A stretch of 64,000 nt of DNA, taken from positions 25,042-89,041 of the forward strand of contig ONMF01000009.1 in assembly GCA_900318865.1 (NCBI GenBank), in the 5' to 3' direction. Position 1 is the stretch's first letter. Each line of letters starts with the position of its first letter. Below are positions 58,457 to 63,320 of this stretch, one piece after another. Source of the DNA: an uncultured Prevotellaceae bacterium. GTDB taxonomy: Bacteria; Bacteroidota; Bacteroidia; Bacteroidales; Muribaculaceae. The notes below the pieces were generated by a model. It had not been told where the DNA came from. It saw only the letters and a list, made by a program, of their open reading frames with translations, and did not search any database. Both the position numbers and the translations under genes were made by a program.

Positions 58457-58868
58457 TCAGCTACTTCTCCCGAAATTTTTATCGAGGGCGTTGCTCAAAA
58501 TGCCCGTGAAAGTGGCCCCGATATTATCCTCATAGAACTCCTTGATTCGCATTGCCGAGGCGTAATACTTGCGCGAGAACCAACGGCGGCGTTTGCTTGC
58601 CGTGCCGCCAAGCCCAGTCGTTATTGCCGTAGCGGTGCAGGACTTTCAGCCCTGCCCAGCGGCAGAGGCAATAGGCTTTGACATCGGTTGCGGTGTAGCC
58701 CTGCGCGAGCAAGACGAAAACGTACCGAAGCTGCTTGTCCGATAAATCCGCGGTTTAGCGAGAGCAGAAAGAATAACGTTTTTTCTTTTTGCCAAGCGTG
58801 AGCGGATTATCTAAATCTTCCCATCTGGTGGGAAGTTTGAGGTCGATGGAGATTTTGTCTTGTTGCAT
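58457..58868 (-). pseudogene. Fusion of two phage-like gene fragments, interrupted by a 69-bp insertion
   Basis: Reconstructed N-terminal fragment MQQDKISIDLKLPTRWEDLSDKQLRYVFVLLAQGY...HGKQ joins out of frame to the C-terminal fragment KRRRWFSRKYYASAMRIKEFYEDNIGATFTGILSNALDKNFGRSS*. Confidence 0.55.
58743..58817 (+). mobile_element. 63-bp MITE/REP-like insertion flanked by a TAAATC direct repeat
   Basis: TAAATC at 58743-58748 and 58812-58817; internal AATCCGC/GCGGATT inverted repeat. Removing 58749-58817 restores the frame W-E-D-L-S-D-K-Q. Confidence 0.72.
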
Positions 58869-58890
58869 AGAAAAAGCGGTTATCGTACTG

Positions 58891-58926
58891 CGAAGGTACG
58901 GTAACCGCTTCTATGCGTAAAAGACA
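58891..58926 (-). promoter_or_regulatory. Island promoter motif copy 4 (TGTCTTTT-N20-TACCTTCG), embedded in a long inverted repeat (58865-58916)
   Basis: Exact 20-nt spacing; GCATAG..AAGCGGTTA.CGTAC/GTACG.TAACCGCTT.CTATGC. Confidence 0.58.
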
Positions 58927-59420
58927 ACGATTTGTGCCTTATCTCACAATCATGTTGAGCATCGCTCTAACTCGTTCACGCTCGGCAATGCTCATGCAAG
59001 CATGGCGTTGCTCTCACTTAATCACTCGTTTTTTGCCGTCTTCGATGACGATGCCCTTGTAGTCCTTGCCTACGGGTTGGCCCATGAGGTTGTAACGCTG
59101 GCCGCTCTTTGCGGGCGCCACGTTGATGTCCTCAACACCGGTAGCGATGGCCTCCCTGAAGGTGGCGGTCACTGCCACGGGAGCAGCCGGCATCTGGAAG
59201 GTGTAAGTGCCATTCTCACCAGGAGTGAGCTCCAATGAGCCGCCGCGCAGACGCAAGGGTGCGCCGCTCGGCTCGCCGTCGACGGTGGTCACGGTGAGGT
59301 TTTCCAACTCATAACCATCATCGGGTGTCACGGTCAGCGTCACGGTCTCGCCCTCGGCGGCGGTAGTCTTATCACATTCCACTGTGCCGTGCTCAAACGA
59401 TTCGGGCAGACTGATGGCGA
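58913..59420. repeat. ~500-bp direct repeat, copy 1 (3' coding module plus 3' UTR of the surface-protein cassette)
   Basis: Near-identical to 60992-61499 at offset 2079. Confidence 0.92.
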
Positions 59421-60633
59421 ACTGAGGCGACACCACGTTCAGATGCATGACTGACATACCAGGCATATCAGGATTGCCTGAAGCCTTGACGGTATAGGTG
59501 ACACCAGCCTCCAGATTGATCGTGAAATCCAAATTTGAACTGACGTTAAAATATCTGCTAATCAAATTTTCTCCCAGATATATTTCAATAGCGGGACGTA
59601 TTTCAGCATCGCCAGTTGTGTAGAACCTATAATCACCGCTCTCTGTAGGCGTGAATAAATAATCGAAGGAGTTACCATATGGAACGTCAATCACATTCTT
59701 GCCCACAGTGAGGGGGGGGAGTTCGAGTTTGGCGATGTTAAAGATCACGCCCTCGAGTACGTCTTCTACTTGAGCCATCGGCACGACGTAGTAAGTCTCA
59801 TTTGCCTCAAGCATGGCTCCTACCTTGACCGTTTCACCCGCAGGAGCATAACCAGAACCTTTAAGGTCGTTGTTTTTAAGAAGCAGTACTTGCGCTATGG
59901 CGCCGCAGTTCATCGAGAAAACGTAGGCTCCACTTTCTTCGGGCACAAAGGCATATTGTGTGCCATCGTAACTCAAATCTATCTCATTGTCGCCCATTTG
60001 GAGCGATGGCATCTCGTATGACCCGCTGATGACGACATCGGCTGCGGGCATGGTGAATGTGTAAACCATTCCAGATTCATCGACTGTCATGGCGACAGGC
60101 TGGCCGCCGCTGGTGGCCGTCAGACCAGAAATAGTCACTCCTGGACTCACCGTTAGTTTGACTTCTTGTCCCTCGTAGGCCACAACAGGCAGTGGTCCCA
60201 TCACATTTGAGAGTTCGGCACACTCGGGGTCGGGGATGATGATGTGGCCTGGGCGTATCACAACCTGGGCAGAAACACTTGTAGTTAATTCATTATTAGG
60301 TAACAGCCGCATGATATAGGTGGTGCCGGCGTAAAGCTTGTTCGGATAGCCACAGTGGCTGACGTGCGTCTGTAGGAGTGCATCCGGCTCGGACCAGGCA
60401 TAGTACAGAGAGTCGCTCCACAGGTTTAAAGCCATGGAATGCGATTCGGCGCATGTTGTGCTTATCACATAATAACCGGTCTCCTCGGGAGTGAACGACA
60501 GATAGCCCTTGTCACTGTCATTAGAGCCTAACTCAATTCCATTGTTCTCTCCCATTTGGAGCGGGATGAACTCTTGTGCCCACACCGTGGCGGTGGTGAG
60601 CAGTGCGAAAAGAAATAGTAATACTTTTTTCAT
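59014..60633 (-). CDS. Secreted modular surface protein A (three PPC-like beta-sandwich repeats, InlB-B-like repeats, T9SS-like tail)
   Basis: Signal peptide; repeated L..G.N.I...F.P.ESG.Y.F; GETVTLTVTPDDGYEL; YNLMGQPV...KGIVIEDGKK. Confidence 0.82.
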   Translation of the reverse strand: MKKVLLFLFALLTTATVWAQEFIPLQMGENNGIELGSNDSDKGYLSFTPEETGYYVISTTCAESHSMALNLWSDSLYYAWSEPDALLQTHVSHCGYPNKLYAGTTYIMRLLPNNELTTSVSAQVVIRPGHIIIPDPECAELSNVMGPLPVVAYEGQEVKLTVSPGVTISGLTATSGGQPVAMTVDESGMVYTFTMPAADVVISGSYEMPSLQMGDNEIDLSYDGTQYAFVPEESGAYVFSMNCGAIAQVLLLKNNDLKGSGYAPAGETVKVGAMLEANETYYVVPMAQVEDVLEGVIFNIAKLELPPLTVGKNVIDVPYGNSFDYLFTPTESGDYRFYTTGDAEIRPAIEIYLGENLISRYFNVSSNLDFTINLEAGVTYTVKASGNPDMPGMSVMHLNVVSPQFAISLPESFEHGTVECDKTTAAEGETVTLTVTPDDGYELENLTVTTVDGEPSGAPLRLRGGSLELTPGENGTYTFQMPAAPVAVTATFREAIATGVEDINVAPAKSGQRYNLMGQPVGKDYKGIVIEDGKKRVIK

Positions 60634-60673
60634 ACGCGTATGGTTTTAAAAGTGAATAAATGAGTTATACAAT

Positions 60674-60743
60674 CAAAGCGGCACACTCAAGCCGAAGCAT
60701 GAATGTGCCGTATGAGGTTGTTTATAAGAAACCAGTCCTACAA
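60674..60743 (-). promoter_or_regulatory. Conserved 70-nt 5' leader, copy 1
   Basis: Identical to 63251-63320, both 40 nt upstream of the ATG; contains a cUUCGg-capped hairpin. Confidence 0.75.
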
Positions 60744-60991
60744 AATCTGAGTGGCAATAATACACTAACAATCAAAGACTTATGCGTGTTATGCAAGTCA
60801 AATATCCTTTGGGCTGATATGTTAGCGATTGCAATCATTATCTTTATTACCCTTGTTTGAAATACAAATGTATAGCTAATATTTAACATGGCAATCACCA
60901 AACGGCTGAAATTTCAAGAAATCTACGAATTTTGCCGAATGAGAAGGGCTTTTGAGCCGCCAAAGTTCACGACACATCGGTTGGCGGTGTG

Positions 60992-61499
60992 ATGCGTAAA
61001 AGACAACGATTTGTGCCTTATCTCACAATCATGTTGAGCATCGCTCTAACTCGTTCACGTTCGGCAATGCTCATGCAAGCAAGGCGTTGCTCTCACTTAA
61101 TCACTCGTTTCTTGCCGTTCTCGATGACGATGCCCTTGTAATCCTTGCCTACGGGCTGGCCCATGAGGTTGTAACGCTGGCCGCGCTTGGCGGTAGCCAC
61201 GTTGATGTCCTCAACACCGGTAGCGATGGCCTCCCTGAAGGTGGCGGTCACTGCCACGGGAGCCGCCGGCATCTGGAAGGTGTAAGTGCCATTCTCACCA
61301 GGAGTGAGCTCCAATGAGCCGCCGCGCAGACGCAAGGGTGCACCGCTTGGCTCGACGTCAACAGTAGCCACGGTTAGCGTTTCCAACTCGTAGCCGTCGT
61401 CGGGGGTCACGGTCAGCGTCACGGTCTCACCCTCGGCGGCTTCAGTCTTGTCGCAAGTCACCGAGCCATTCTCAAACGATTCGGGCAGCGTAATAGCAA
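60992..61499. repeat. ~500-bp direct repeat, copy 2
   Basis: Near-identical to 58913-59420. Confidence 0.92.
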
Positions 61500-63210
61500 A
61501 TGGCTGATATTCTACGATGGGCATCATCTGGGGTGTGTCGGTGACCGGCGGCAGGGCGAGGAACGCCTCGTTCTGCGGCATCATGTCGCCCAAGTAGCGG
61601 TAGTAGCCCACACCGTAGTTGTTGCCCAGCAAGTAGAAGGTATGCTCTGGGTAGTTTACAGCTGTCCAGTTGGGGATGTATCTGGGGGCGTTCTCGGCGT
61701 GCAGCTCGTTAGCCCGCGTGTCGCTGCTTGTGTCGGTGGTGCGGTTCAGTTGCACGAAATTGTTGCTCTTGCCCGTCTTCAGCACCACCGCCGTTCCAGC
61801 ATTCACTATCTTGTCTTTCACCTCGGTCAACACCACCTTACCGTCTGCCACCGTGGCTTTATAGACCTTCGCCGCTCCCTGCGCCTTGAAGTTGGCGTAG
61901 TCGTTGTAGAACGTCGTCCAACTCGCGTCGTCCCAGTTATTCGTCCTTGGCTTCAATACCAGCGTCGTTGCGTCGGGAAAGGCTTGCGCTCCCATCGTTG
62001 GATTGCCGCTGATGGTGACCGAGTTCAGGGCGTTACATTCGTTGAATGCTTTATTCCCGATGCTCGTCAAGCTGCTCGGGAGGGTGATGCTTGTCAGGGC
62101 GTCACAATTGAAGAATGCCATCGTCCCGATGCTCGTCAGGCCAGACGGGAATGTGACGCTCGTCAGGGCGTAACAATTGAAGAAGGCTTCATTCCCAATG
62201 CTCGTCAGGCCAGACGGGAATGTGACGTTCGTCAAGTGGATGCAAGAATAGAAGGCGTTGTTGCCAATGCTCGTTACATTGGGCATCTTGAGGGTCTCAA
62301 GTTTGGTCCAGATGAATGCTCCGTCAGCGATGCTCGTGACGGAGGCAGGTAGTTCATCTTCCTTTATCTTTATGCCGCTGTTGTCCACGATATGGACATT
62401 CTTTAAAAATCTGCACTGATTGGCCGACGGTATCGTGCTGGCGTCATAGTCTTGGCTGAAGTATATCGTTCTGAGCTCGCTGAAATCTGAGAAGTTCATG
62501 CCCGTTATTCCTACCACTGCTGCGCCGTCGATGATGGCGGGGAAGGCTAATATGTCGCTTTTCGGTAAGCCAAAAGAAGAGAGTCCCGTGACGTGGCATT
62601 GAGAGCCGTCGCTGCTCTTCTGGATATCCCAACCTGGCGCAGCGTTGGATTCGCAGTGCATATAGATGTAGTCCCCACCGGCACCATCGTTCAGGTCGTA
62701 GCCCGTGGCTGCACTAAAGGTGTATATGCCACCGCTCTGCGTCGCGTTGAAGGTGATTTGGCTGACTGCTTCCATATTTTCCATTATTTCCGTGGTGTAG
62801 TAGAGGTGGATGTCGTCACCGCCGGCATTGCTGTTCAGGTCGCCCTTCTTCTGCTTGAAGTGGTCGCCGCCGTCATAGGGCACCAGCTTAAAGCGATGGC
62901 CGTAGGCGTCACGGGTGTCGGGGGCAGTGCCAGAGGCGTCGCTGATAAGGAAACGCGTGACGAAGGTGTGGTTGGGCGATGCCGTACTTCCCTCTTTGTA
63001 GAGCAGATAGATGTAGTCGCTCGACGAGCCGCAGCCCGCATTCAGGTCCTGGTCGATGACCGTCCAGCCTTGGTCAGTGTAGGTATCCTTAAGCTCGTCG
63101 GTCTCGGTTTTGGTGCCTCCTATGAGCATCACCTCGGCGATGTACTTCGGCTCGGCCCACATCGAGAGACTGGCGAGCACAGCCACAAGTAAGAGTATAA
63201 ACTTTTTCAT
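61093..63210 (-). CDS. Secreted modular surface protein B (MABP/beta-prism-like DLNxGAGGDYIY repeats, BspA-type LRRs, InlB-B-like repeat, T9SS-like tail)
   Basis: Signal peptide; DLNAGCGSSSDYIY, DLNSNAGGDDIH and DLNDGAGGDYIY; TFPSGLTSIG..AF..C LRRs; C-terminal ~135 aa about 90% identical to protein A. Confidence 0.85.
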   Translation of the reverse strand: MKKFILLLVAVLASLSMWAEPKYIAEVMLIGGTKTETDELKDTYTDQGWTVIDQDLNAGCGSSSDYIYLLYKEGSTASPNHTFVTRFLISDASGTAPDTRDAYGHRFKLVPYDGGDHFKQKKGDLNSNAGGDDIHLYYTTEIMENMEAVSQITFNATQSGGIYTFSAATGYDLNDGAGGDYIYMHCESNAAPGWDIQKSSDGSQCHVTGLSSFGLPKSDILAFPAIIDGAAVVGITGMNFSDFSELRTIYFSQDYDASTIPSANQCRFLKNVHIVDNSGIKIKEDELPASVTSIADGAFIWTKLETLKMPNVTSIGNNAFYSCIHLTNVTFPSGLTSIGNEAFFNCYALTSVTFPSGLTSIGTMAFFNCDALTSITLPSSLTSIGNKAFNECNALNSVTISGNPTMGAQAFPDATTLVLKPRTNNWDDASWTTFYNDYANFKAQGAAKVYKATVADGKVVLTEVKDKIVNAGTAVVLKTGKSNNFVQLNRTTDTSSDTRANELHAENAPRYIPNWTAVNYPEHTFYLLGNNYGVGYYRYLGDMMPQNEAFLALPPVTDTPQMMPIVEYQPFAITLPESFENGSVTCDKTEAAEGETVTLTVTPDDGYELETLTVATVDVEPSGAPLRLRGGSLELTPGENGTYTFQMPAAPVAVTATFREAIATGVEDINVATAKRGQRYNLMGQPVGKDYKGIVIENGKKRVIK
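62040..62270. repeat. 69-bp tandem repeats encoding 23-aa BspA LRRs
   Basis: CCC(G/A)ATGCTCGTCAGGCCAGACGGGAATGTGACG recurs with a 69-bp period. Confidence 0.85.
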
Positions 63211-63250
63211 AAGCGGTAAGTTTTATGAGTGAATAATAAATTTCACGAAG

Positions 63251-63320
63251 CAAAGCGGCACACTCAAGCCGAAGCATGAATGTGCCGTATGAGGTTGTTT
63301 ATAAGAAACCAGTCCTACAA
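63251..63320 (-). promoter_or_regulatory. Conserved 70-nt 5' leader, copy 2
   Basis: Identical to 60674-60743. Confidence 0.75.

Follow-up and report, generated by a model that had tools for sequence, protein, structure and literature searches.

How did two neighboring genes come to have nearly the same beginning and the same end around unrelated middles, and do they still exchange these parts? The question is raised by genes A and B, which lie side by side on the minus strand of a 64,000-nt stretch of contig ONMF01000009.1 (hereafter the window, meaning the whole stretch of DNA that was analyzed); its source is a rumen Sodaliphilus of the Muribaculaceae. An earlier note, made from the letters of the window alone, had read the pair as tandem surface-protein cassettes with the same leader, the same anchor, and a swapped passenger, whose conserved flanks let recombination exchange or delete the passenger domains. 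Our analysis makes it probable that A and B are members of a family of modular secreted-protein genes whose shared ends recombine, moving passengers, swapping anchors, and still exchanging sequence within the species.

The shared parts stand at the two ends of the genes. Each gene is preceded by a leader of 70 nt that stops 40 nt short of its ATG and, as the earlier note had described, is identical between A and B; the match covers 70 of 70 positions, and identity falls away sharply on both flanks. At the opposite end, the near-identical block of ∼500 bp that it had reported is 92% identical across 497–508 nt and 96% identical in its last 300 nt, and its two copies are 2,079 nt apart. The block ends in a 3′ untranslated region (3′UTR) of ∼100 nt that is 98% identical between the two genes and carries the TGTCTTTT box. 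The passengers had been called unrelated, and the proteins indeed share only their C-terminal ∼135 aa: 124 of the final 135 residues are identical, and N-terminal to that the two sequences are unrelated.

The domain assignments fared unevenly. Both proteins contain the InlB B-repeat (PF18998; 56.3 bits in A and 44.4 bits in B against a Pfam gathering cutoff of 23.6), and residues 292–415 of B form the BspA-type leucine-rich repeat (LRR) that had been proposed (PF13306; 117.5 bits, E = 4.6e-34, cutoff 27.7), a family that the Pfam search did not find in A. A MABP-like N terminus of B is plausible. Residues ∼46–183 match the C-terminal domain of Mpf2Ba1 (8B6U, residues 357–477; phmmer E = 1.3e-7), which we take to be a beta-prism; the Pfam models gave no match to this part of B. 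PPC-like repeats in A were not recovered: a Pfam search to E ≤ 10, PPC included, and a search of the Protein Data Bank (PDB) gave no match to its passenger, which shows a weakly repeated internal motif and is built of ∼190-aa modules whose number differs among orthologs. Orthologs of the A passenger are found at other loci in two related genomes, with 88% aa identity in G098:C16 and 82% in G151:C14, and orthologs of B occur in G151, G104, and G122 with 85–91% aa identity.

We compared A and B segment by segment with the loci of related Sodaliphilus genomes, and gene A matched two different sources. Its spacer has 95% identity with the sequence that precedes the B ortholog of G151, and its 3′UTR (98%), terminator hairpin (94%), and downstream DNA (82%) match the same G151 B locus. 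Its signal peptide and passenger are 89–100% identical to the A orthologs of G098 and G151, which lie on other contigs, lack the hairpin leader, have one extra repeat module, and carry a tail that is only 79–88% identical. Because the frame of A matches the G151 B locus and its passenger matches the A orthologs, A appears to be an A-type passenger recombined into a B-type frame. The 5′ crossover lies between GCCGCTTTG and TTATTCAC (∼60650–60673) and the 3′ crossover within InlB-B (∼59260–59410).

Gene B shows signs of exchange as well. From the signal peptide through the passenger and InlB-B, it matches its orthologs at 94–98% identity, but over the final 133 coding nt it is 93% identical to A and only 79–81% identical to those orthologs. 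A and B have in common a private 80-nt tail variant, to which the B orthologs are 60–78% identical. The B orthologs of G126 and G079 are 89–90% identical to aa 660, InlB-B included, and then continue into a Dockerin_1 domain instead of the tail; because tail and dockerin alternate on B orthologs in this way, the terminal anchor would have been swapped. The chromosomal slot has changed occupants as well. The place of A is taken by B in G151 and by a CUB-type gene in two further species, where the same spacer, with the same start, lies between two tail genes of which the downstream one is the CUB type. The B transcription unit is found in three genomic contexts in three species; the unit of G104 has a neighborhood of its own.

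Within the species, exact-protein look-ups led to numerous contigs from the rumen that, apart from the variation described here, agree at ∼100% identity over 5.1 kb. These are contigs of short-read metagenome assemblies of mixed strains (cattle rumen PRJEB21624, STEW18/19), and we typed their alleles at the 22 sites that distinguish the A and B 3′ blocks. The parental pattern, b22 followed by the spacer and a22 followed by the terminator, is present in this genome and in L098, L101–103, and L105. A B copy with an A-type distal part (b10a12 or b11a11) was found in L096, L200, and L201, and an A copy turned B-type (a10b12 or a11b11) in L100 and L202–205; L200 and L204 have single-site swaps at 59185. 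A third allele of the A tail (L137/P0002, 14 member sequences) contains G104-like sequence that is in neither parental copy. All allele switches in the same-species contigs fall between 59263 and 59185 or between 59185 and 59116. In total, there are at least five recombinant haplotypes with two different breakpoints, from different samples and assemblers (k127, k141, and scaffolded sets).

Recombination across the two 3′ blocks had been predicted to delete 2,079 bp, losing A and keeping B, and one assembly contig has this form. Contig k127_443840 of ERZ931870 (84,907 nt, no N) runs from B-proximal sequence through b11a11 to the A terminator, with cassette A absent and a 192-aa gene 612 nt past the stop; the loss is exactly 2,079 bp. 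The same sample yielded a contig with the reciprocal allele pattern. Contig k127_322377 is 2,206 nt long, that is 2,079 + 127, with an exact 127-nt terminal overlap, and its order of A-proximal sequence, a11b11, spacer, leader, and start of A is the reciprocal junction as a cycle. In L206, from another sample, the tail of A continues into the spacer and leader. A different kind of loss is seen in L136 (ena:ERZ1050934 scaffold_5231), where a 196-nt deletion (the equivalent of window positions 58965–59160) removes the A tail and half of the 3′UTR, leaving an A product of 518 aa, and where B has a 39-nt (13-aa) in-frame deletion.

On the reading that we favor, A and B would be two members of a large modular family of rumen Sodaliphilus, secreted and probably at the cell surface, with a gene plan of structured leader in the 5′ untranslated region (5′UTR), signal peptide, variable passenger, InlB-B Ig-like spacer domain, C-terminal tail of ∼45 aa, and conserved 3′UTR. 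Since leader and 3′ block are common to paralogs in one genome and to relatives, they would provide portable homology for RecA-type homologous recombination. Over evolutionary time, passengers would have moved into and out of a conserved chromosomal slot, and here an A-type passenger would have recombined into a B-type frame beside a retained B gene. Within the species as it is today, exchange between the two 3′ blocks appears to continue, with conversion tracts both ways, and occasional crossing-over would remove cassette A and yield a reciprocal 2,079-bp circle or tandem junction. Most likely, no dedicated machine is involved and the repeats of the family simply undergo ordinary homologous recombination, whose outcomes would include short conversion tracts, loss or amplification of the unit, and replacement of passengers and anchors among species. 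The repeats, the covariation of the RNA hairpin described below, the mosaic breakpoints, and the recombinant haplotypes can be read directly from the sequences and assemblies, where recombination between repeats shows itself in silico by identical stretches, breakpoints inside them, and both conversion and deletion products. The exchange presumably depends on RecA, and the variation it creates is presumably useful to the cell.

Several points weigh against this reading. Everything seen at the population level was drawn from assemblies of short reads from mixed strains, in which artifacts of iterative-k assembly or error correction are possible, and this is why the within-species recombinants are likely to be real but unproven. 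The order B–A was found at every place shown except in one deletion contig (in sets of 24, 23, 6, and 14 contigs), and the total of rearranged forms is one deletion contig and two circle or duplication junctions. The cyclic contig may represent a tandem amplification instead of a circle, because a nonreplicating 2-kb circle should not persist. Finally, the origin of the junction between the B 3′UTR and the spacer is ambiguous. Comparison with G151 and L142 shows that the B 3′ block joins the spacer directly at ...ACGCAT/CACACC, with a CGCAT microhomology that fits either a tandem duplication of spacer, leader, B, and tail or a small deletion in an older array. Scans of Joint Genome Institute metagenomes for recombinant junctions gave no match and then one uninformative contig.

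A rival explanation is a one-off event: a single tandem duplication of a B-type unit and a single passenger replacement, no continuing exchange, and recombinant contigs that are assembly products of mixed strains. The CGCAT microhomology is typical of illegitimate duplication, the genome has only two leader copies, gene order is alike in nearly all same-species contigs shown, and a loop that a repeat induces in a de Bruijn graph yields precisely these two things, a "deletion" path and a contig as long as the loop plus k. We nevertheless regard this explanation as unlikely. Unbroken identity between the A and B blocks extends over 77 and 68 nt at most, always below 127 nt, so that the parental genome should assemble linearly at k = 127, and since the breakpoint stretches are shorter than this k, ambiguity in the final-k graph cannot make the chimeras. 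The recombinant haplotypes, with their two breakpoints, come from different samples and assemblers, and the P0002 tail allele brings in G104-like sequence foreign to both parental copies. A purely tandem-duplication origin of the pair was set aside, since the arrays of tail gene, spacer, and tail gene in other species make it inseparable from a microhomology deletion within an array that was already there. The earlier note had held that two copies only, with no strain variation, would speak for a one-off duplication; the leader does occur only twice in this genome, but further copies exist in the genus and variant contigs in the assemblies.

A more ambitious version of the favored reading, in which leader-to-3′UTR cassettes excise as circles or amplify and then re-enter loci with family ends, would make the family an integrase-free network that re-deals passengers and anchors among slots, strains, and species, all under one genus-specific co-regulating RNA leader; we think this quite improbable.

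Far less credible is dedicated, programmed cassette switching, in which an enzyme would act on the leader or the 3′ block as in shufflons, invertible promoters, diversity-generating retroelements (DGRs), or integrons. The sharp homology edge at the leader 5′ end in three contexts, the unit-sized cyclic contig, the three genomic contexts of the B unit in three species, and a serine recombinase (PF00239) seen ∼6 kb upstream in longer contigs could all be taken in its favor, but the sharp edge is equally explained by the boundary of a functionally constrained element, and no recombinase adjoins the genes. Meaningful inverted repeats were not found (only two weak 20-nt pairs with 75% complementarity), and the breakpoints fall anywhere within identical stretches, not at one site. 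Mismatches between A and B involve all four bases and are not adenine-specific, and DGR-type mutagenesis was rejected on this ground. Of the proposed adhesin diversification system, then, the recombination is supported in outline, since exchange of passengers and loss of A are seen in the comparative data, but a dedicated system is not supported: the analysis found no adjacent recombinase, meaningful inverted repeat, or targeted mutagenesis to go with it, and most contigs are parental. Another alternative, that the flanks are near-identical purely because a regulatory leader and a sorting tail are under purifying selection without recombination, can cite the leader hairpin and tail motif kept across the genus, but it is highly improbable and already contradicted by the identity profile, in which the paralogous leader copies do not differ at all although divergence among orthologous leaders reaches 27% (G151), synonymous and untranslated positions are equally identical, and the private tail variant of A and B departs from the B orthologs.

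The shared leader has the features of an RNA element. A sequence search (E = 1e-30) found only the two copies in the 2.51-Mb draft genome, and both match the leader that precedes the B ortholog in G104 at 96% identity and the corresponding leader of G151 at 73%. Rfam covariance models gave no match at E ≤ 1 for either leader, and the 3′UTR likewise had no Rfam match. We built a covariance model, R1, on ten leader-like sequences from genus members. In this genome it matched the two known copies only, and across the genus it matched ∼50 copies in 29 of 133 genomes (1–5 per genome), with zero matches in 144 genomes from 34 other Muribaculaceae genera. In 41 aligned leader copies, 92.7% of the cells of the main hairpin are paired, and 29 cells are double changes compared with 7.6 in shuffles (0 of 500 shuffles as high); the signal collapses in slid controls. 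The many G-U pairs of the hairpin indicate the sense RNA strand.

All readable open reading frames (ORFs) downstream of a leader start with a signal peptide, and the leader-bearing genes terminate in either the tail or a type I dockerin (PF00404 above cutoff). Dockerin-ending leader genes, with PF00404 scores of 38–55 bits, are found in L057, L060–L063, L066, L068, L076, L078, L089, L092, and L095, and one dockerin-ending leader gene is an ortholog of B. The view of leader and anchor as one cassette describes A and B but not the family, in which the leader also precedes dockerin-ending genes: because the leader genes that could be read carry signal peptides and end in tail or dockerin, the leader marks a set of secreted proteins and is not strictly coupled to the tail. 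It is probably a cis-regulatory 5′UTR common to a regulon of secreted proteins.

Conservation reaches ∼50 nt upstream of the 70-nt block, with a covarying palindrome and, in some relatives, a run of 7–9 C. Such runs are flanked on one side by a conserved ATTGA...TTATTACC motif and on the other by the first hairpin in L065, L070, L074, L084, L091–L093, and L095. They are possible slipped-strand sites; phase variation through the poly-C tract is unsupported by the assemblies, in which the run is 9 C in four of four contigs of the G104 species. A transcription start site at the 5′ edge of the leader had been considered on the basis of a weak −7-like box. This is weakened by a canonical Bacteroidota −7 box (TAnnTTTG), TACATTTG, in the spacer ∼125 nt farther upstream (∼60866–60873) and also by the conserved sequence upstream of the 70-nt block. 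Two candidates for a third cassette were rejected: the C5 gene (L011:3025–3846) resembles the pair only in the ∼30 nt that precede the ATG, in the tail, and in the terminator hairpin and lacks the hairpin leader, and the C10 gene has only the tail in common.

A search for more copies of the leader and tail with other passengers had been suggested, and the tail proved to be widespread. It occurs in at least 294 clustered proteins, on passengers that include CUB, BspA-LRR, LRR_4, PA14+GLEYA, DUF285, and others. Its motif is TG(I/V)(E/D)(D/E)I(N/V)...YNLMGQPVGKDYKGIVIE(D/N)GKK(R/I)(V/I)(I/V)(K/R), with a sister form ...GKDVPTAPGIYIHNGKKIVVR, and the 3′UTR element recurs after KKRVIK-type tail genes of G003, G151, G104, G018, and G083.

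The tail had been described as resembling the sorting signals of the type IX secretion system (T9SS). Searches with TIGR04183 and PF18962, relaxed to E ≤ 10, matched neither of the two proteins, nor the tail on its own, nor tails related to it, and a genome-wide TIGR04183 scan returned nine canonical C-terminal domains (CTDs), A and B not among them. The host does encode T9SS machinery, with four PorU-type sortase genes above cutoff in tandem (G000:C24:7062–22078, outside the window; 944, 725, 719, and 675 bits against NF033707). Compared with the genome's own CTDs (hhalign), the tail reached 15% probability over 15 columns, in the YNLMGQPV strand only. An AlphaFold (AF2) model with a mean predicted local distance difference test (pLDDT) score of 82 has a short terminal beta-hairpin, joined to the InlB-B sandwich by a linker of low confidence; no 7-strand sandwich is modeled for the tail, and the model had no PDB match at E ≤ 0.001. 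With no match to a curated hidden Markov model, a weak profile match, and no PDB neighbor, "T9SS-like" denotes a resemblance and not demonstrated membership. The tail presumably acts in sorting or attachment, possibly as a minimal T9SS signal. With several sortases in the genome, each might handle its own class of C-terminal signal, the short tail included.

Two further observations concern the 3′UTR. Part of it (58969–59016 and 61048–61095) has a core, TGCCGA(G/A)CGTGA, in common with a family of short repeats between genes. This core has 28 exact matches genome-wide compared with ∼2.4 expected, and copies of the repeat lie, for example, at C2:22853, C15:41, C24:31947–32089, and C26:98976–99118, several of them at contig ends. 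The 24 codons past the stop of A stay open (EQRHACMSIAERERVRAMLNMIVR and then a stop; 58941–59016, minus strand), and B is alike. A peptide like EQRHACMSIAERERVRAMLNMIVR, encoded in part with synonymous changes, can be read past the stop in L129 and, after a TAA stop, in the C10 gene, and in L041, the conserved poststop nucleotides sit in another frame. This stretch seems more likely to be an RNA or DNA element than coding sequence.

The pair can be set beside several known systems. In Porphyromonas gingivalis, the kgp, rgpA, and hagA genes undergo domain rearrangement and allelic exchange, with mosaics off the strain phylogeny (PMC5266723), and kgp is deleted in spontaneous variants through homologous recombination between repeats (PMC9328147). 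Those genes also encode Bacteroidota surface proteins and are paralogs with near-identical adhesin or C-terminal blocks, and their kgp-type mosaics and deletion match the mosaic tails and the loss of cassette A here. In contrast, the shared parts of the Sodaliphilus genes include an untranslated structured leader and a 3′UTR, the passengers are unrelated domains and not repeats of one adhesin, and the tail is no recognized T9SS CTD; moreover, the organism is an uncultured rumen commensal, with evidence from assemblies alone. In Listeria monocytogenes, inlC2-inlD gave rise to inlH when the 5′ end of one gene was fused to the 3′ end of the next and the intervening sequence was removed (PMC3977354). 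The internalins are likewise tandem surface-protein genes with differing LRR passengers and shared B-repeat and anchor regions, the inlH fusion has the geometry of the B-proximal/A-distal deletion form, and the spacer domain that A and B have in common belongs to the divergent InlB B-repeats (PF18998). Listeria, however, is Gram-positive and uses LPXTG sorting, no shared RNA leader is described there, and PMC3977354 describes no reciprocal circle or bidirectional conversion tracts.

T9SS cargo with type A CTDs (TIGR04183/PF18962) also combines a signal peptide, variable domains, an Ig-like spacer, and a conserved C-terminal end. It shares the pattern ..Y(N/D)L.GQ.V...G.Y/V I..GKK..., and the host genome has PorU-like genes and canonical CTDs, but the tail here is only ∼45 aa (a type A CTD is a beta-sandwich of 70–100 aa), the curated models are blind to it, and it is modeled as a beta-hairpin rather than a 7-strand sandwich. 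Integron gene cassettes resemble the locus in the unit-sized circular form (the 2,079-nt cyclic contig) and in a conserved slot with different genes per genome. Here, there is no integrase and no attC or attI, the joints lie in long homologous stretches, each unit has its own promoter-proximal leader, and the circle is known from an assembly contig alone. The locus differs from these cases in having a structured RNA leader and a 3′UTR in the shared ends, a slot with varying occupants, alternating tail and dockerin, and an unrecognized short tail.

Rumen Muribaculaceae are abundant and almost unstudied, and the locus is a natural case in which recombination between paralog ends may be traced from single-site conversion to the loss of a gene and the exchange of passengers across species. 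A candidate 5′UTR RNA motif, specific to the genus, marks a set of secreted proteins here, dockerin bearing and tail bearing alike, and the locus also has a short C-terminal tail that occurs in hundreds of proteins, is missed by curated T9SS models, and may serve as a minimal signal for sorting or attachment. Should the recombinants hold true at read level, the surface repertoires of gut commensals would change by repeat-mediated loss and gain of cassettes within a host population. This would bear on strain tracking and on the interpretation of metagenome-assembled genomes, in which such loci are easily misassembled.

Table 1. Features of the A/B locus, in window coordinates
Feature	Position	Strand	Description	Basis
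Gene A	59014–60633	minus	539 aa; signal peptide, passenger of repeated ∼190-aa modules (no named family), InlB B-repeat, 45-aa tail	ORF list
Gene B	61093–63210	minus	705 aa; signal peptide, beta-prism/MABP-like N-terminal domain, BspA-type LRR, InlB B-repeat, 45-aa tail	ORF list
Leader copy of A	60674–60743	minus	70 nt; R1 model match 60631–60716, reaching the ATG	
Hairpin 1 in A leader	∼60722–60743			
Hairpin 2 in A leader	∼60679–60712		cUUCGg loop	
Leader copy of B	63251–63320	minus	70 nt; R1 model match 63208–63293	
3′ block of A	58913–59420	minus	InlB B-repeat ∼59150–59420; 45-aa tail 59017–59149; stop codon and ∼100-nt 3′UTR element 58913–59016	Sequence alignment of A and B copies
3′ block of B	60992–61499	minus	Same parts, offset +2,079	
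Breakpoint zone, A copy	59117–59262	minus	A/B-identical stretches 59186–59262 (77 nt) and 59117–59184 (68 nt)	
Breakpoint zone, B copy	61196–61341	minus	Equivalent of the A zone	
Spacer, B to A	60744–60991	minus	Starts with hairpin element CCGCCAA...TTGGCGG; compared with G151 over 60744–60996	
Terminator-like hairpin after A	58861–58912	minus	AGAAGCGGTTACCGTAC...GTACGATAACCGCTTTTT; no counterpart after B	

The terminator hairpin of A is found after the B ortholog of G151 and after the C5 tail gene. Farther downstream of A, a 63-nt insertion relative to the G151 ortholog (58749–58811) breaks a reading frame; the G151 counterpart reads through as ...PTRWEDLSDKQLRYVF... within a 205-aa ORF.

The genes neighboring A and B encode NTP_transf_2, peptidases, DUF3667, and an extracytoplasmic function (ECF) sigma factor, with the resolvase ∼6 kb off. 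The end of this contig does not derive from yet another cassette, a possibility ruled out by longer contigs of the same species, which run on into NTP_transf_2, two peptidases, and the resolvase. Four flanking proteins searched for signs of a phage context had no PHROG or Pfam match. In L099 (GCA_902787585.1, CADAGY010000009.1), B is broken into ORFs of 504 and 179 aa by a frameshift or an assembly error.

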